A stretch of DNA of 35,866 nt, taken from a virus. Location: positions 1 to 35,866 of the IMG/VR virus record IMGVR_UViG_3300030098_000917, one strand, 5' to 3'. Below, one piece after another: positions 28,951-35,493 of the stretch. Each line of letters begins with the position of its first letter. Positions within the stretch are counted from its first letter, which is position 1. The notes under the pieces are model-generated. The model did not search any database, was not told the origin of the DNA, and was given only the letters and a program-made list of their open reading frames with translations. The position numbers and the translations under genes are program-made.

Positions 28951-31347
28951 TCACGAATAGAAATACTGACTCTGCCTGATCAGTTCGATATCCAGATCAC
29001 CCCTCTCCGGGGGCTCAGGCAACGTAACCCCTATCGGCAAGTAGTGGGTGAGTTCCGATAGAAAATCTTGCATCAAATCTTGGCTGTAGATTTCGATCAC
29101 CGACTCAAGAAGGTGCTCGACCATCATGGGCATATCGGGCGATAAGCCCAAAGCCGCATCGTGGATAAAGCTCTGAAACATAATCCCACTGCTTGAGTTC
29201 TTGAGAGTTGTCTTGGTCACGATCGACCCATCATCCGAGTGGATTCGGTTGGGAGCCACACCGTTGCAGCCCTTACGCTTGCAGAGTTTTCCACTGCCGT
29301 ATCTGATCTTGTGCTGCCGGATGACGTCGCCGATAACCGTCTTCACGCTCTGGCTTTGCCAAGTCTCATAGGCTTGCTTGACCACAAAGCCGGTCGGAGT
29401 TGTCCACCGGATCGGTGCCTCGTTGTCGATGCAGATCCGAGCCACATCTCGGAACCAAGACATAGCCTTCTGGGCCTCACCAACGACGTCAGAGATCGAC
29501 TCCCAGACGAGGTCGGCCAGGAAGTGAGGGGGCTTGAACGTCTCCTCAAAGCCGAAGGGGTTATCCATGCCCCTGGTCTTGAGCTCCGACAGGAACCACT
29601 CCCGCACATAATCTCGACAGGCCCACCGAGTACCTGAATATGGCACCACCATCGTAGCGCGTTTGGTGGCCTTACGATCGACACCAAACCTCAGCCAGGC
29701 CCGAGCCAAGTCACTGCCGTCGGCTTCAAGACGACGGATGGTTGCGTCGGCCACATCCTGATAGATGTCTTGGGGCCGAGCGGTTGGCAGGACGTTGGTA
29801 GCCAAAGCTCCCACCGGATCACACATAAGCAGCGAGTAAAGTTGCAGGCCATTGCAGGAGCCATCGACAGACACAGGCAGTTGGGTCACAAAGCCCGGCC
29901 CTTCTTTCATATAGTTGGCCCATTCAAAGCAGAAGGCCAAGAACAGTTCCGGCTCGTCCGCCCTGCCCCACAACGACGTCGTGCCCCGAGGGTCTTGAGC
30001 GATGGCCTCGATCATCTCCCGGTTGGCGTGGGTCCACTCGATCCTCTCGTCCAGTGTGCCCTTGTCCTCGCCGTAGCAGTTCGCCCCGTGGATGGTGAGC
30101 CACTTGGCATCCTCGTCAGTCCAGATCGGCTTAGCCGACGCCGACCGCAGGATCGAGCGGGCTACCTTTGATCCCTGGGGCTGCAAGAAGTAGACACGGG
30201 GATACTTCCGGCCACGAAAGTCCATGTACCAGGGGAAGTAGATCGGGCGGCCTTTGAGCTTCTCGGCCATCCAGAATATTTTTGTCATCTGAAGCCGCTT
30301 GGACTCGGCACTTCGGTTCTCGGCGTGAACCCGAGCCGCTGCCTTCCTCCACTTCCGACGGGCCTCCTCGTTCTCCCCGATGTCGGCAGGCTTCGATGGG
30401 ATCTTCTCGCCGACAGGTGAAGGGATGTCACCGATCTCGATGTCCTGCTCCCAGCAGTACCTCAAAGTATCGAGGACGTCCTCATTGATCTCCCAGGCTA
30501 CCCGCTGAAGTTGGTTGACAGCCGCCTTGTCTTCATAAAGATCAATGGCGTTCAAGTGCTCAAGGTGTTGACGGTCGTTTGTCTTGATCAGAGGCCGAGG
30601 GAAAACGTGCTCCGTCAGGTAGCCCCCGGTGTAGACATCAGTCCAATCGGCAGGCCGTTCGATCATAGGCAGGTACAACGGAGAGAGGTCTTCAGAATAC
30701 TTATGAGCCTCTTTCATCCATGCCGTCAGCTCGTCGGTGGCGTGAACGTATGTCTCCGACTTGCCCAGCAGTCCCCGCCGCGTCGTGATCTCGATGATCC
30801 CAGTGGAGATACGCATCAGCTCGATCAACGTCATGCCGATCTTGAGCCGCATGTTCCTCGGCCACTTCGAGAACTGAAGGTCGATGAACTTCTCGCTGTT
30901 GGCCAGGAACTTACGCTTCGACTCGTAGCCAGGGATCTTCTTGGCCTGCTCGACGTTCAGCTTCCAGATGTCCGGGTGCTTGTCCCGCATCTCCCGCCAC
31001 CTGACTTCATCCTCGATCATCCGGGCGACCTTGAATGATGCTTTGGTCAGCCGCTCGTGCATCGAGATCGAGTCGATCACTGTCCTGGCCGTGAGGGCCG
31101 CAACGATCGAAGGGTCCAGGATGTCGATGTATGGGTGCGTTGAGTTCCGGTTGCCCACCGGCTGCCGCTCAACCTGCTTCTTCCACGACCTGATCTCATC
31201 AGCCAGTCGATCCACCGACTCCGTCAGGAGCCTCTTGCCCAATGGATTCTGACTCTCGACGTTGTGCTCAGTCGTTCGCTGAACGTGCTTCCAATACCTA
31301 TGGCGACCGAGTTCTCTCATCTCAGCTTCGAGGTCGGATTGTCTCAT
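28951..31347 (-). CDS. Single-subunit DNA-directed RNA polymerase (T7 gp1-like)
   Basis: 798 aa. VDGSCNGLQ corresponds to T7 DGSCSGIQ, KRATMVVPYSG to T7 KRSVMTLAYGS, and FIHDAA to T7 IHDSFG. Confidence 0.92.
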   Translation of the reverse strand: MRQSDLEAEMRELGRHRYWKHVQRTTEHNVESQNPLGKRLLTESVDRLADEIRSWKKQVERQPVGNRNSTHPYIDILDPSIVAALTARTVIDSISMHERLTKASFKVARMIEDEVRWREMRDKHPDIWKLNVEQAKKIPGYESKRKFLANSEKFIDLQFSKWPRNMRLKIGMTLIELMRISTGIIEITTRRGLLGKSETYVHATDELTAWMKEAHKYSEDLSPLYLPMIERPADWTDVYTGGYLTEHVFPRPLIKTNDRQHLEHLNAIDLYEDKAAVNQLQRVAWEINEDVLDTLRYCWEQDIEIGDIPSPVGEKIPSKPADIGENEEARRKWRKAAARVHAENRSAESKRLQMTKIFWMAEKLKGRPIYFPWYMDFRGRKYPRVYFLQPQGSKVARSILRSASAKPIWTDEDAKWLTIHGANCYGEDKGTLDERIEWTHANREMIEAIAQDPRGTTSLWGRADEPELFLAFCFEWANYMKEGPGFVTQLPVSVDGSCNGLQLYSLLMCDPVGALATNVLPTARPQDIYQDVADATIRRLEADGSDLARAWLRFGVDRKATKRATMVVPYSGTRWACRDYVREWFLSELKTRGMDNPFGFEETFKPPHFLADLVWESISDVVGEAQKAMSWFRDVARICIDNEAPIRWTTPTGFVVKQAYETWQSQSVKTVIGDVIRQHKIRYGSGKLCKRKGCNGVAPNRIHSDDGSIVTKTTLKNSSSGIMFQSFIHDAALGLSPDMPMMVEHLLESVIEIYSQDLMQDFLSELTHYLPIGVTLPEPPERGDLDIELIRQSQYFYS

Positions 31348-31532: not shown

Positions 31533-31620
31533 TGGTGCGGGCGGCGGGACTCGAACCCACAACCCATTGATAGGGGGCAGATTTTAAGTCTGCTGTGTAT
31601 ACCACTTCCACCACGCCCGC
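31533..31620 (-). tRNA. tRNA-Leu (anticodon UAA), class II, with an encoded CCA
   Basis: I folded the cloverleaf manually. The acceptor stem is GCGGGCG/CGCCCGC and the D stem is GTG/CAC. The anticodon stem is GCAGA/TCTGC with loop CTTAAAA. There is a long variable arm. The T arm is GTGGG-TTCGAGT-CCCGC, followed by discriminator A and CCA. Confidence 0.9.
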
Positions 31621-31637
31621 AGACCCTTGCCACATGG

Positions 31638-32672
31638 TTATGCCACAACGTCGAGCATGGGACCAGATGATCTGTTGGGCTCCAGCAAACCGATGGCTGA
31701 CACCAAGTTATGAGGAGCCAAGTGAGCGTAGCGGAGCGTGACTTCAATCGTCTTGTGCCCCGCCAGTTCCTTCACCGTCAGGATCGGGACACCTCGCTGC
31801 ACCAGGCGTGAGCAGAACGTGTGCCTCAGAGCATGCATCACCTCCTGCCCAGTGGCTGGCCAGTCCATGTGAAGACGGAGCCGGTCCCAGTAGTTCCTGA
31901 GATGGTGCTTCGTCGTCCACTCGAAAGGCCCCTTGGCCGAGGAGTCCATGGCACCCAACGCAGCTTGAGCCGCCTGGGTCAGGGGGACTCCCCTTGGGCT
32001 CTCGGACTTCGTGTCCGACAGGATCACCACGCCCCCTTGGATGTCACGCCACTCAAGACCACGGGTCTCACTGACCCTGAGCCCAGTGTCGGCCTGGAAC
32101 CTGACCCAGTGCCCCATGTTCGGGTGACCAAGGTGGTCGAAGTAGGCCACCATCTCCTTGAGTTCCTTGTCGGTAAACCAACGCAGACGGTTGACCCCCT
32201 CTCGCAGCCGCTGGACCTTGGGCTTCGAGTCGATCACCCCGATGTCCTTGGCCACCGTCAGGCACTTGGACAGCGAAGCGAGCTTCCGGTTGATCGTGGC
32301 ATTCGAGTTCCCGTGGTCCTTGAGGGCCAAGATCACTCGGTCAATGGCGAACAGGTCGATGTCACGCACCAGTGTCCCCATGCCGATAAGCCCGCCGACA
32401 ATCTCAGCGTTCCGCTTGAGGCCACTGCCAGACTTCGAGTCCGACCAGTACCGAGTAGACACGTACTCGATCATCTGTCCCAGGGTCTTGGGCCTCTCAT
32501 CGGAGCCACGCTCGGTGCCTCCCATGTCCGGCACCCGACCAGCCACTACGTCGGCCTTGGCCTGGGCCTCCCAGACCTCAGCATCCTCGTATGTCTTGAA
32601 CTGCTTACGCCACCGCTGACCCTTGTGGTTCACCGTGGCTTGGAAGCCCTTGTCCCTTGCGCTAATGGTCAT
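31638..32672 (-). CDS. int: Tyrosine recombinase / phage integrase
   Basis: 344 aa. The C-terminal catalytic pattern is ...TGLRVSE...HALRHTFCSRLVQRG...LAGHKTIEVTLRYAHL (R, H-x-x-R, H, Y). Confidence 0.88.
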   Translation of the reverse strand: MTISARDKGFQATVNHKGQRWRKQFKTYEDAEVWEAQAKADVVAGRVPDMGGTERGSDERPKTLGQMIEYVSTRYWSDSKSGSGLKRNAEIVGGLIGMGTLVRDIDLFAIDRVILALKDHGNSNATINRKLASLSKCLTVAKDIGVIDSKPKVQRLREGVNRLRWFTDKELKEMVAYFDHLGHPNMGHWVRFQADTGLRVSETRGLEWRDIQGGVVILSDTKSESPRGVPLTQAAQAALGAMDSSAKGPFEWTTKHHLRNYWDRLRLHMDWPATGQEVMHALRHTFCSRLVQRGVPILTVKELAGHKTIEVTLRYAHLAPHNLVSAIGLLEPNRSSGPMLDVVA

Positions 32673-32988
32673 CAGATAGGTTCTCCAGTGTCGTCTTTAG
32701 TCTTCGGCCAGAGGCCGTGAGACTGACCAGTTTTTGTCGTCGATCCATGATGTCCTCGTGAGCTTCGAGAAGTTTGAGCCCCGGCCGCTTGTGCCTGCTC
32801 CAGGCCCCGAGGGCCGATACGTTCCGAGAGACCGAGGACTGGGCTAGGCCGCTACGCTGAGCCAGCACCCGCATCGGGATTGGGTCAGGGTCCGCCTCCG
32901 CTACCAGCAGAAACGTCACCACCGTCTGTGCCTGGATCTCGGGGTCCAGCTGACGGAACGCCTCGATTGAGGCCAATAAGTTTTTCAT
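32662..32988 (-). CDS. MarR-like winged-helix transcriptional regulator, a candidate lysogeny regulator
   Basis: 108 aa. The pattern is ...MRVLAQRSGLAQSSVSRNVSALGA...LLEAHEDIMDRRQKLVSLTASGRRL. It overlaps the integrase start by 11 nt. Confidence 0.65.
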   Translation of the reverse strand: MKNLLASIEAFRQLDPEIQAQTVVTFLLVAEADPDPIPMRVLAQRSGLAQSSVSRNVSALGAWSRHKRPGLKLLEAHEDIMDRRQKLVSLTASGRRLKTTLENLSDDH

Positions 32989-33159: not shown

Positions 33160-33189
33160 ATTATGAGTCGCACCGTTTCCACAAGTCAA
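33160..33189 (-). promoter_or_regulatory. Sigma70-like promoter upstream of the MarR-integrase cassette
   Basis: On the minus strand, TTGACT (33189..33184) is followed by an 18-nt spacer and CATAAT (33165..33160). It lies immediately downstream of the early-operon terminator. Confidence 0.45.
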
Positions 33190-33197
33190 TGCCCCAG

Positions 33198-33240
33198 TGA
33201 AAAGGCCCCGGCCCGCTGAGGATGACAAGCGGACCGGGGC
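33198..33240 (-). terminator. Rho-independent terminator ending the early small-gene operon
   Basis: The minus-strand RNA is GCCCCGGUCCGC-(12-nt loop)-GCGGGCCGGGGC followed by CUUUUCAC. The 12-bp stem contains a G-U wobble on this strand, which would be a C-A mismatch on the other strand. Confidence 0.65.
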
Positions 33241-33254
33241 AACAGGAGAAACTA

Positions 33255-33335
33255 TTAGTCCTCGGGGAGGATGATGCCCAAGGCTACCATGATCAGGGCG
33301 ATGATGCCCACCAGGGCTAGGAGGTTCGTCATCAT
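33255..33335 (-). CDS. 26-aa hydrophobic micro-protein
   Basis: MMTNLLALVGIIALIMVALGIILPED. It has an ATGA overlap with the upstream ORF, is preceded by GGGGGTGACGC and is followed by TAA-TAG and the terminator. It is below the track's length cut-off, so I translated it by hand. Confidence 0.5.
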   Translation of the reverse strand: MMTNLLALVGIIALIMVALGIILPED

Positions 33336-33547
33336 GCGTCACCCCCTACCTGACCATACTGGTTCCACTCGTTGATATCGCCTGTATTGATCTGGGGGCA
33401 TCCCCCATTCATTGAGATCGAATCGATCTCCGGGGTGATGCAGTGTTGGTTTTTTACGCCAGCGAAGATAATGATGTCATCCTTCCATAGCCGCAAGATC
33501 GCAGCGACATCTTCGCCCGTCAGCTTCTTTAGGTCTTGAGGAGTCAT
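33332..33547 (-). CDS. Early hypothetical protein (71 aa)
   Basis: The start lies within the conserved cassette CAGGAGGTGACGCATGA. The protein ends ...QVGGDA. Confidence 0.6.
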   Translation of the reverse strand: MTPQDLKKLTGEDVAAILRLWKDDIIIFAGVKNQHCITPEIDSISMNGGCPQINTGDINEWNQYGQVGGDA

Positions 33548-33702
33548 GCGTCACCTCCTGCCTGGCAGTCCACAGATTCCTCGGAACATTTTTCCAAGCT
33601 TTTTTCGGCATCTTCAAGTTCAAAAAATGGACCGTCAATAAATCCATGACCATCAACAACCCAAAATCCACTTGACCGTTCGACGATTTCGAACTCGTTC
33701 AT
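33544..33702 (-). CDS. Early hypothetical acidic protein (52 aa)
   Basis: Hand-translated as MNEFEIVERSSGFWVVDGHGFIDGPFFELEDAEKSLEKCSEESVDCQAGGDA. The conserved cassette bounds it on both sides. Confidence 0.55.
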   Translation of the reverse strand: MNEFEIVERSSGFWVVDGHGFIDGPFFELEDAEKSLEKCSEESVDCQAGGDA

Positions 33703-34049
33703 GCGTCACCTCCTGTAAGTAACTCCATGATATCGTCGGGTTTGGGTATTCCGGTAGCTTTGGCGATGGCGGCACGGGCTGTAGAAATGGCCCACACCTC
33801 CTCGGGGTATCTATCCTCGGGCTCCTTACCACACTCGTCAAACAGGTGGACCATGTAGATCAGTTCGTCCAGAAGATCACGAAAGGCCGCGATGTTGTAG
33901 GTGCCTATCGGAGTACCTGGGAGGTCGGCTAAGTCTCCACACTCATAAATCGCATCACCCTGCTCTTGACTAATAACGTGCAAGGTGGCCCCATGAGCAT
34001 CACTCCAAGTTTCCCCGTCGTCCAATACTACGATTGTTCCGGTGCTCAT
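33699..34049 (-). CDS. Early, strongly acidic protein (116 aa)
   Basis: The conserved cassette is present at both ends. The protein is rich in Asp and Glu throughout and ends ...LLTGGDA. Confidence 0.65.
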   Translation of the reverse strand: MSTGTIVVLDDGETWSDAHGATLHVISQEQGDAIYECGDLADLPGTPIGTYNIAAFRDLLDELIYMVHLFDECGKEPEDRYPEEVWAISTARAAIAKATGIPKPDDIMELLTGGDA

Positions 34050-34270
34050 GCGTCACCTCCTGGCTGCTCGGTCTCGCCAAGGTGCCGCCGAAGGCCTCGG
34101 AGGGCCCGCTGAGCTTCAGTCGGGGTGAGGACCGCACCGACACGATGCGCCCCGTACTTGCCATCAGCGACGTAGGCGGCTTCATTTCGGTCGGGCCTGC
34201 GGCCTACGGTTCCAATCGTCCCGTTGGACAATACGATGTAGTAGCGGAATGGCCATTCTGATTCTGGCAT
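34046..34270 (-). CDS. Early hypothetical protein (74 aa)
   Basis: The start is trimmed to MPESEWPF (ATG 34270), downstream of AGGAG. The protein ends ...EQPGGDA in the conserved cassette. Confidence 0.55.
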   Translation of the reverse strand: MPESEWPFRYYIVLSNGTIGTVGRRPDRNEAAYVADGKYGAHRVGAVLTPTEAQRALRGLRRHLGETEQPGGDA

Positions 34271-34415
34271 GCGTGGTTTCTCCTGAAGTGCTCCGGCCCA
34301 GGGGCCGAAAGGTGAATGGTGTTTTTGGCCTGATACGGCCATGCGCCGATGCTGTTTTCGGCTGGCTAGATCGTTTCCCCTACCCCCCGGCGACAAGCTG
34401 AGGAGCTGAAACGAC

Positions 34416-34437
34416 CCCGCACCGTTTCCGGTACGGG
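34416..34437 (-). other. GNRA-tetraloop hairpin just after the stop of ORF 34447..34677
   Basis: The minus-strand RNA is CCCGUACCG-GAAA-CGGUGCGGG followed by GUCGUUUCAG. The U-G wobble exists only on this strand. The U-tract is weak, so a terminator role is uncertain. Confidence 0.35.
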
Positions 34438-34446
34438 CTCGGGTAA

Positions 34447-34677
34447 TCAGTGATAGTCCTGCGCGGCTTCGACAGCTTCCGATTCGGTTTCAAAAGGTCC
34501 GAAAGGTGACGACTCCGGCAAGCATCCCGGGAAGCACCACCAGAAGTAGAACCCCGGTTCCATCGAGGGATCATCGACGTGGTGATCGTAGTCAGTCCAC
34601 CAGAATACTTCGACATCCGGCAGCGCGTTGGGGTCTGCTTCTCGGGCTGGATCGCTGTAGATTCTCATTGGTTTCAT
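34447..34677 (-). CDS. Early acidic Trp-rich protein (73-76 aa)
   Basis: MKPMRIYSDP...FWWTDYDHH...GFYFWWCFPGCLPESSPFGPFETESEA. There are two in-frame ATGs, at 34677 and 34668. The second has the better spacing to GAGGA. Confidence 0.6.
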   Translation of the reverse strand: MKPMRIYSDPAREADPNALPDVEVFWWTDYDHHVDDPSMEPGFYFWWCFPGCLPESSPFGPFETESEAVEAAQDYH

Positions 34678-34693
34678 CCTCGATTGTATGGGG

Positions 34694-34840
34694 TCACTTG
34701 TTCCGCTTGCGTTCTGACTCGCGGCGTGCGTCGCCGTTGCACTCCTCGTCCAGACGTTCTACGTGGGGCTCCAGCCACTTGCACAGGGCGACGAGCAGCA
34801 GCATGGCGAGGAAGACGATGATGATCGGTGTGGGGTTCAT
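34694..34840 (-). CDS. 48-aa single-TM micro-protein
   Basis: Hand-trimmed to MNPTPIIIVFLAMLLLVALCKWLEPHVERLDEECNGDARRESERKRNK. The start is in the ATGA overlap with the upstream ORF, after GGAGGTGCTGC. Confidence 0.55.
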   Translation of the reverse strand: MNPTPIIIVFLAMLLLVALCKWLEPHVERLDEECNGDARRESERKRNK

Positions 34841-35094
34841 GCAGCACCTCCAGTCATCACGGTAATGTTGTGGAAGCCCACTGGAGCGATGGCAACGATC
34901 CCCCAATCGCTGGCGATGAAATCTTCCCCTTTGTTCCTGCGAACGTCCCCTAGCTCCCAAACGGCTTCCGCAAAGGTCAGGAAGTACGGCTCGCCGGTGT
35001 CGGGGTCGGTGTCGATCATCAGGTCGCCCTTGTGGGTCAACGTGAAAGAACGGGATTGGGGATCAAGTTCGGTCTGGACTTTCTGAATATCCAT
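34837..35094 (-). CDS. Early acidic hypothetical protein (85 aa)
   Basis: ATG 35094 is preceded by GAGGATGAAACC. The protein ends ...VMTGGAA in a variant of the conserved junction cassette. Confidence 0.6.
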   Translation of the reverse strand: MDIQKVQTELDPQSRSFTLTHKGDLMIDTDPDTGEPYFLTFAEAVWELGDVRRNKGEDFIASDWGIVAIAPVGFHNITVMTGGAA

Positions 35095-35181
35095 GGTTTC
35101 ATCCTCATGGGTTAGGGCTCTCGGGAATCGAGGGCCGGTCAGCCCACCGCCCCGTAGGGCGGCAGGTGGCCGGTCGTCGGG

Positions 35182-35465: not shown

Positions 35466-35493
35466 ATCATCGGATCATCCAGTCCGATGTCAA
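35466..35493 (-). promoter_or_regulatory. Sigma70-like early promoter candidate
   Basis: On the minus strand, a perfect TTGACA (35493..35488) is followed by a 16-nt spacer and GATGAT (35471..35466). It lies about 50 nt upstream of the ATG at 35415. Confidence 0.35.

Follow-up and report, generated by a model that had tools for sequence, protein, structure and literature searches.

Introduction

The linker sequences of the modular theory (Susskind and Botstein; summarised in PMC3029335), known from lambdoid phages, are short conserved sequences at the borders of otherwise unrelated genes; they are common to related phages with different neighbours, and mosaic joints map to them. The origin of such joints is debated in phage genomics between homologous exchange at short boundary sequences and illegitimate joining followed by selection, and the homologous-exchange model has suffered because boundary sequences are rarely visible at joints (PMC3029335). 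A second system is that of the promoter-early stem-loops (PeSLs) of T4-type phages (Arbiol et al. 2010, PMC2839356; Comeau et al. 2014, PMC4122927). These are repeated regulatory cassettes which flank ORFans in a hyperplastic early region; an ORFan is found between two copies in one phage and a single copy in a close relative, and the expression signal is carried along with the gene. Concerning translation, the coupling described by Huber et al. 2019 (PMC6728339) involves co-directional genes whose stop and start codons overlap by 4 nt (ATGA), a Shine-Dalgarno (SD) site being located among the final codons of the upstream gene.

The window, i.e. the whole stretch of 35,866 nucleotides analysed here, contains a gene junction which shares these traits with all three systems. 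[quoted passage not shown] PeSLs are about 100 bp long, intergenic and transcriptional (promoter and terminator), whereas the cassette of the window is 17 nt long, overlaps two ORFs and is translational; no promoter-like or terminator-like site was found at any of its copies, so the composite that characterises PeSLs is absent. Mini-circles have been demonstrated for PeSLs. In ordinary coupled pairs each pair has its own sequence; the window, in contrast, reuses one sequence verbatim, which is far stronger than the other ribosome sites of the genome and marks recombination joints. Linker-like or PeSL-type systems are already known, and the junction of the window differs from them as a variant.

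Junction copies and gene layout of the window

A sequence search of the window located the 17-mer CAGGAGGTGACGCATGA at three exact sites on the minus strand (33544-33560, 33699-33715 and 34046-34062), in agreement with the preliminary description, which had also reported the two variant copies at 33332-33348 (TAGGGGGTGACGCATGA, two mismatches) and 34837-34853 (CTGGAGGTGCTGCATGA, three mismatches). A chance origin of the copies is ruled out by dinucleotide shuffles of the window, none of which (0/100) contained six or more matches (mean 0.14). The sixth near-match, at 31831-31847, falls within the integrase (GQEVMHALRHT) and lacks ATGA; it is attributed to chance. The cassettes are found in the early operon only, the features of which are, in order along the minus strand:

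35466..35493, minus strand: sigma-70-like promoter TTGACA-16-GATGAT upstream of the early operon (consensus match only)
35094..35106, minus strand: second-type intergenic junction GAGGATGAAACC-ATG, copy 1
34837..35094, minus strand: 85-aa ORFan ending in GGAA
34837..34853, minus strand: variant cassette CTGGAGGTGCTGCATGA, joining the 85-aa gene (GGAA) and the 48-aa membrane protein gene; predicted SD:anti-SD duplex -13.0 kcal/mol
34694..34840, minus strand: 48-aa membrane protein, kept in relatives L042 and L055
34669..34681, minus strand: second-type intergenic junction, copy 2, preceding a 73-aa gene
34046..34270, minus strand: 74-aa ORFan ending in GGDA
34046..34062, minus strand: exact cassette, with the ATG and SD of the 116-aa gene and the TGA of the 74-aa gene; predicted SD:anti-SD duplex -16.0 kcal/mol
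33699..34049, minus strand: 116-aa protein of a family whose usual end is AIAKATGG[DE]A
33699..33715, minus strand: exact cassette joining the 116-aa and 52-aa genes
33544..33702, minus strand: 52-aa ORFan with an exact cassette on both sides
33544..33560, minus strand: exact cassette joining the 52-aa and 71-aa genes
33332..33547, minus strand: 71-aa protein ending in GGDA
33332..33348, minus strand: variant cassette TAGGGGGTGACGCATGA, joining the 71-aa gene and the 26-aa membrane peptide
33255..33335, minus strand: 26-aa membrane peptide (MMTNLL...ILPED), the last gene of the early operon, kept in relatives
33200..33240, minus strand: GC-rich hairpin with a short T run which closes the early operon, kept in relatives (conserved block 33311-33200)

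According to the ORFs, each copy supplies the SD and ATG of the downstream gene and the TGA stop of the upstream gene, as had been proposed, and the co-directional ORFs overlap by 4 nt (ATGA) at all five cassette junctions. The ORFs of the window agree with independent public gene calls on identical contigs. The five junctions had been described as consecutive; this applies to four of them (34046, 33699, 33544 and 33332), but the copy at 34837 does not adjoin the others. Two junctions of another type lie in between: one, at 34668, is intergenic (GAGGATGAAACCA-ATG) and the other consists of a gap of 176 nt ahead of 34270. Relatives possess their own, genome-specific versions of the second-type intergenic junction.

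The 17-mer appears to be the standard junction of the polycistronic early operon of a temperate marine T7-like phage. By RNA polymerase, the nearest isolates are Roseobacter CRP phages and pelagiphages (34%), and the early region has no DNA similarity to isolated phages. Concerning the host, neither a prophage copy nor an exact tRNA-Leu 3' half was found in 185,579 species genomes. An integron gene cassette (attC/IntI) was considered and rejected: the 17-mer has no inverted-repeat arms, the search for known RNA families (Rfam) finds only tRNA, and the only integrase adjoins tRNA-Leu as a phage attP-type module.

Ribosome-site strength and C-terminal tails

The sequence AGGAGGTGA, located 4 nt ahead of the ATG, is perfectly complementary over 9 bases to the 3' tail of 16S rRNA; its GGAGG core lies 6 nt ahead of the ATG, inside the upstream ORF. 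The five strongest predicted SD:anti-SD duplexes among the 44 genes are those of the five cassette starts (-13 to -16 kcal/mol, compared with -10.3 for the next best and -5.8 for the capsid gene). ATGA overlaps are common genome-wide, mostly without an SD site. The claim that the nucleotide identity of the copies goes beyond the needs of coupling has to be narrowed, since 13 of the 17 bases correspond to the 9-base anti-SD complement plus ATGA and only about four exceed those needs.

The predicted probability of being unpaired is 0.26-0.44 at the cassette junctions and 0.49-0.68 at the intergenic ones. This greater predicted pairing fits coupling rather than free initiation under the model in PMC6728339. 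A ribosome stopping at the TGA may be held by the strong SD pairing and restart at the ATG (termination-reinitiation), in which case any ORF set between two cassettes would be translated. A prfB-like +1 frameshift site was also considered and rejected; GCA-T is no slippery sequence, and a ribosome shifted to the +1 frame would meet a stop after about 15 codons.

Because stop and start overlap and the SD lies inside the upstream ORF, the junction dictates the four sense codons with which the upstream gene ends; read as GGA GGT GAC GCA, they give GGDA. The proteins of 74, 116, 52 and 71 aa all end in GGDA and the 85-aa protein in GGAA. The relatives bear out the earlier suggestion that these C-termini are forced, as the tail moves with the cassette: homologues of the 71-aa protein in L045 and L047 (49% identity) end in SSNG and not in GGDA, and a 213-aa relative has a PGGDA tail only where the cassette comes next. 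The homologue of the 74-aa protein in L151 ends in GGEA and has another cassette allele (GAAGCGTGA), and the 116-aa protein contains a 12-aa insert, IPKPDDIMELLT, ahead of GGDA. The cost of the arrangement is that the upstream protein, whatever it is, has its last four residues written by the junction, and annotators should not take GGDA and GGEA tails for protein motifs. An AIAKATGG-anchored scan for relatives yielded six contigs, mostly of other phage types with the same protein motif.

Concerning the genes between the junctions, the 52-aa protein is without a relative in a set of 5.8 billion proteins; the GC3 of its gene is 0.37 compared with about 0.7 in core genes. A role of the cargo in host takeover or anti-defence, which had been thought probable, finds no support: family searches gave no hits, with no Pfam match above threshold, and the single PHROG assigned is of unknown function.

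Gene exchange among relatives

The pattern GGAGGTGA[AC]GC[AG]TGA is present at junctions in eight relatives (L042, L045, L047, L059, L150, L151, L154 and L158), and related variants are found in L056. The junction type is kept in the relatives and the neighbouring genes differ; a search for different cargo between copies had been proposed as a check. In three independent pairs, one genome contains one cassette and the other contains several, together with extra genes. The pairs with an ORFan between two copies in one member and a single copy in the other are the window and L151, L158 and L154, and L047 and L045.

The case of L151 is the clearest; this is an ocean variant whose junction is the same in three assemblies from three samples. 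It shares with the window a block of 4481 nt at 99.6% identity (18 mismatches), which begins at 33347, inside the 33348-33332 copy. Upstream of this block the identity to the window is 79%, and the 52-aa and 71-aa genes are absent from L151; the 33699..33715 cassette forms part of a 19-nt stretch identical to the L151 junction. L154 and L158 differ by two extra genes, which lie between copies of the cassette; the left side is 83% identical and the right side 96.5%. L045 and L047 share a 97.3%-identical block of 4373 nt, starting at -13 of a start codon, and one of the two genomes has an extra 78-aa gene. Contigs with the same proteins as the window are at least 99.95% identical and are uninformative on population variation.

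Mosaic breakpoints, the other check proposed, were found at the cassette, where breaks in homology concentrate at -10 to -17 relative to start codons. Fifty-four per cent of the homology ends (n=26, these being HSP ends and not all independent events) lie at most 20 nt from a start codon, compared with 13% for random positions, and none of 2000 random sets reached this value. Three-way alignments show each novel joint to be a hybrid of two cassette copies, free of scars; some exchanges involve diverged copies with only about 7-8 nt in common. At the level of sequence, these comparisons show that when close relatives have gained, lost or replaced genes, both limits of the change fall within the cassette and the register is kept. 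We infer from them that the exchange at the cassette is driven by homology. Copies within a genome are uniform for the intergenic junction type (p ~0.001). For the overlapping type p = 0.024, a value driven by the window (p = 0.39 without it).

Proposed mechanism and alternative explanations

Based on the differences in cargo and the breakpoints at the cassette, which support the linker reading of the preliminary description, we consider it probable that a translational-coupling junction doubles as an in-register recombination linker. The 12-19 nt of identity between copies would act as microhomology, across which the T7-type set of the phage (SSB, 5'-3' exonuclease, RusA and helicase, the genes of which are present in the genome) may anneal or template-switch. 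The products would be deletions between direct copies, and insertions or replacements in co-infection, with reading frames and coupling intact. The uniformity of copies in a genome may come from descent and recombination, plus selection for a strong ribosome site. T7 reportedly deletes DNA between direct repeats of such a length range (Pierce, Kong and Masker 1991, Nucleic Acids Res 19:3901; cited in PMC4417187); that was laboratory work with artificial repeats.

Convergent selection, without any guidance of recombination by the cassette, is an unlikely alternative on the evidence below. Each junction would have separately reached the best coupled ribosome site, and illegitimate recombinants inside genes would have been lost (a Hendrix-type selection filter), so that breaks remain at the cassettes. 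The 13 bases accounted for by the anti-SD complement and ATGA fit this explanation, and the filter predicts breakpoints at gene boundaries (model discussed in PMC3029335). The 4-nt overlap of the genes makes their boundaries coincide with the cassettes, and breaks at cassettes are therefore inseparable from gene-boundary breaks surviving selection after illegitimate recombination. Convergence on the 17-mer does happen: a scan of IMG/VR with the exact 17-mer found 36 contigs, mostly of unrelated phages, in which it is located at real junctions with one copy each. A further scan with CAGGAGGTGAMGCRTGA found 116 contigs, and none of the 80 listed contains more than one copy of the 17-mer family, which speaks against convergence as the source of the repeated copies of the window. 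A widespread mobile repeat is also rejected, since the contigs listed in these scans are single-copy and most are from unrelated phages. Also at odds with convergence are the four 'free' bases (the leading C and the CGC spacer), which are identical in three copies, with CGC in a fourth, whereas relatives have AGC, CAGC and others at these positions. The scarless hybrid joints and the presence of an ORFan of foreign composition between two exact copies likewise favour the coupling junction acting as a linker.

An mRNA operator, by which a translational repressor of the phage, comparable to T4 RegA, or processing by an RNase would turn the early genes off together, is very improbable. It would suit the overlap of several early-gene starts by an identical sequence and the restriction of cassettes to the early operon, but no RNA-binding protein emerged as a candidate, neither an Rfam family nor a conserved structure was found and the non-SD positions vary freely in relatives. 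Tandem duplication of one gene with its junction, the genes then diverging, would account for direct repeats at four adjacent junctions, but it is rejected as having almost no likelihood because the flanking proteins are unrelated, as had been noted before (pairwise BLASTP E-values all > 0.28 outside the shared tail); moreover, DNA identity among copies stops at the edges of the 17-mer, gene lengths differ (74, 116, 52 and 71 aa), GC3 ranges from 0.37 to 0.66 and the homologue distributions differ from gene to gene.

A broader version of the linker reading is speculative and, in our view, doubtful: ribosome-site junctions would mediate recombinase-free gene-cassette exchange clade-wide in marine T7-like phages. 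In this version the non-SD bases would be kept identical by second-order selection for recombinogenic junctions, and units of a gene and one cassette would pass between co-infecting phages, perhaps as PeSL-like small circles. If it were true, the clade would have an integron-like pool of early ORFans needing only the annealing machinery of the phage.

Significance for phage gene shuffling

Concerning the debate on mosaic joints, the clade of the window shows boundary sequences at most joints of its early region. The recombination enzymes of the phage type concerned are well studied in T7, and one of the exchanges is recent (99.6% vs 79% identity), its joint being pinned within a dozen bases. 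The linker route to phage gene shuffling, proposed long ago, would have a clean natural example in this early region.

The phage and its early operon

The window is a complete IMG/VR virus record of 35,866 bp with direct terminal repeats at its ends, and represents a T7-like phage whose genes all lie on the minus strand. The main features around the early operon are:

28951-31347, minus: single-subunit RNA polymerase
31533-31620: tRNA-Leu(UAA)
31638-32672, minus: tyrosine integrase
32662-32988, minus: MarR-like winged-helix gene
~33240-33200, minus: hairpin, early operon end
35493-35466, minus: sigma-70-like promoter, early operon start

By RNA polymerase, the isolates closest to it are Roseobacter CRP phages and pelagiphages, at only 34% identity. 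It recurs, essentially clonal (99.95% or more), across >30 assemblies of marine metagenomes, many of which are from Tara Oceans. A family assignment was found for none of the nine small early genes. The 12-mer GGAAACGGTGCG has two copies in the window (34418-34429 and 33169-33180, minus): one falls within a hairpin of the 176-nt gap downstream of the 73-aa gene, and the other between the two boxes of the TTGACT-18-CATAAT promoter preceding the MarR-like gene.

The cassette and the C-termini it forces

The 17-nt cassette CAGGAGGTGACGCATGA is exact at 34046, 33699 and 33544, with variants at 33332 (two mismatches) and 34837 (three mismatches); six matches were reached in none of 100 shuffles. 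A sixth stretch resembling the cassette (31831, within the integrase) is a chance match. The preliminary description placed the cassette at five consecutive junctions: all five copies are at gene junctions, but only four are consecutive, as the fifth stands two junctions off. At each copy one ORF stops and the next begins, and public gene calls on identical contigs concur. GGDA closes the proteins of 74, 116, 52 and 71 aa, and GGAA the 85-aa protein. The claim that these tails are forced was borne out: GGAGG 6 nt from the ATG, together with the ATGA overlap, dictates the frame and therefore imposes Gly-Gly-x-x on the upstream protein, a direct outcome of junction geometry.

Within the cassette, AGGAGGTGA is complementary at all 9 bases to the canonical 16S 3' tail; this complement and the ATGA overlap account for 13 of the 17 bases. 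The five cassette starts have the strongest predicted Shine-Dalgarno (SD) duplexes among 44 genes (-13 to -16 kcal/mol; next best -10.3, capsid gene -5.8), and most other genes, many ATGA-overlapped ones included, have a weak or absent SD. The sequence is that of a very strong coupled ribosome site. For the SD of the last cassette (TAGGGGGT; 33310-33348, minus), the predicted pairing partner is an anti-SD-like ACCTCCTA ~23 nt downstream, within the membrane-peptide ORF.

Junction types in related phages

Relatives from RNA-polymerase-anchored scans (39-78% identity) carry early cargo almost wholly unlike that of the window. Each has stereotyped junctions of two types, intergenic and overlapping. 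The intergenic type (e.g. ACCCCATTC-CAGGAGAAACCACA-ATG) has a flavour specific to each genome.

Intergenic junction flavour by genome
L042: AGGAGGAATCAC
L045 and L047: CTGGAGAAAC
L053: TTGAAACGGAGTAT
Window: GAGGATGAAACCA

The overlapping type, GGAGGTGA[AC]GC[AG]TGA, gives GG[DE]A tails and was indeed found beside almost entirely different early genes, as expected under the modular swapping first proposed. Junctions are more alike within than between genomes (intergenic type p ~0.001; overlapping type p = 0.024, or p = 0.39 without the window). The more distant relative L053 (RNA polymerase identity 59%) has its quite different leader, TTGAAACGGAGTAT, four times ahead of early genes (L053:3329-5610), so the habit of stereotyped junctions predates any one sequence. 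A third type, GGAGAATCCCACT(A/G)ATG, with a 1-nt stop/start overlap, occurs in three contigs (L150:1018-1035, L154:573-590 and L158:1508-1525); it puts an identical GESH tail on two unrelated upstream proteins and is the start point (-15) of blocks of 92-95% identity.

Exchange of genes at the junctions

Closer relatives were obtained from contigs carrying homologues of the 116-aa protein. The ocean variant L151 matches the window at 99.6% over 4481 nt (18 mismatches) from 33347, inside the cassette, with an identical MarR-like protein, whereas upstream identity is only 79%. Neither the 52-aa nor the 71-aa gene is present in L151, whose version of the 116-aa gene is 45% identical. In a three-way alignment, the L151 junction, seen in three assemblies from three samples, agrees with the left flank of the 33715 copy of the window and, on its other side, with the right flank of the 33348 copy. 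Contig L158 has two extra genes relative to L154, between cassette copies which both align to the single L154 cassette (identity 83% on the left, 96.5% on the right). L047 has an extra 78-aa gene relative to L045, and a 4373-nt block of 97.3% identity begins at -13 of the start codon. Mosaic breakpoints at the cassette, as predicted, emerged from 26 high-identity segment ends in the early regions of 11 relatives, not all independent events: 54% lie <=20 nt from a start codon, where random placement gives 13% (0 of 2000 random sets reached the observed share), and left ends concentrate at -10 to -17, the cassette. These sequence comparisons show genes exchanged in register at the cassette.

Ten of the 18 L151 mismatches cluster at 31686-31875 (integrase 3' part), a stretch that takes in the chance near-cassette 31831-31847 and has the appearance of a short, independent tract of recombination or conversion.

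The tail goes with the junction rather than with the protein. In homologues of the 71-aa protein, the C-terminus is SSNG. The 213-aa protein of L045 has an extra PGGDA, CCAGGAGGTGACGCTTGA and a different downstream gene, while its L047 orthologue (88% identical) ends in APIH. Among homologues of the 116-aa protein, the ending is always AIAKATGG[DE]A; the window's gene has this ending interrupted by a 36-39 nt insert (33716-33754, minus; CGGAATACCC...GAGTTACTTAC, encoding IPKPDDIMELLT). The insert, possibly a scar left by an inexact exchange within a cassette, opens with ACCGGA, which also makes up the first half of an alternative cassette, ACCGGAGGTGA (L150, L158).

Mechanism and origin

Ribosomes would reinitiate at the cassette, a step consistent with the model in PMC6728339 and with the local structure predicted over the SD site. 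The 12-19 nt of identity between copies would guide recombination, for which we propose the T7-type SSB, 5'-3' exonuclease, RusA and helicase of the phage's own gene set.

Illegitimate joints merely filtered by selection are a possible alternative, because gene boundary and cassette coincide; however, such a filter leaves unexplained why the non-SD bases are identical, why the hybrid joints are scarless and why a compositionally foreign ORFan lies between two exact copies. A role as mRNA operator or processing site would be a further, less likely reading. Core genes have a third-position GC of 0.68-0.79, compared with 0.57 for the 116-aa gene and 0.37 for the 52-aa gene, whose protein has no relatives among 5.8 billion proteins. 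Convergence on the sequence is also possible, since the exact 17-mer occurs at real gene junctions in 36 IMG/VR contigs, mostly of unrelated phages, with one copy each; among the contigs listed in two IMG/VR scans, none had a second copy. In unrelated viral contigs of 37-52 kb (L167-L171), a protein ending in ARAAIAKATGGE[AV] precedes a gene with an ATGA overlap; the overlapping cassette may therefore have its origin in a C-terminus conserved across a widespread family of small phage proteins. Tandem duplication is rejected: the flanking genes are unrelated, as first described, with the joined proteins alike in the tail only (all pairwise E > 0.28 outside it) and DNA identity ending at the 17-mer. 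Nor is the element an integron cassette.

In the way it works, the cassette resembles the boundary or linker sequences described by modular theory and the promoter-early stem-loops (PeSLs) of T4-type phages (PMC2839356). Unlike a PeSL, it is only 17 nt long and lies within ORFs, and no promoter or terminator was found at its copies, so that it is not itself a PeSL; it is a variant on an already known linker- or PeSL-like principle.
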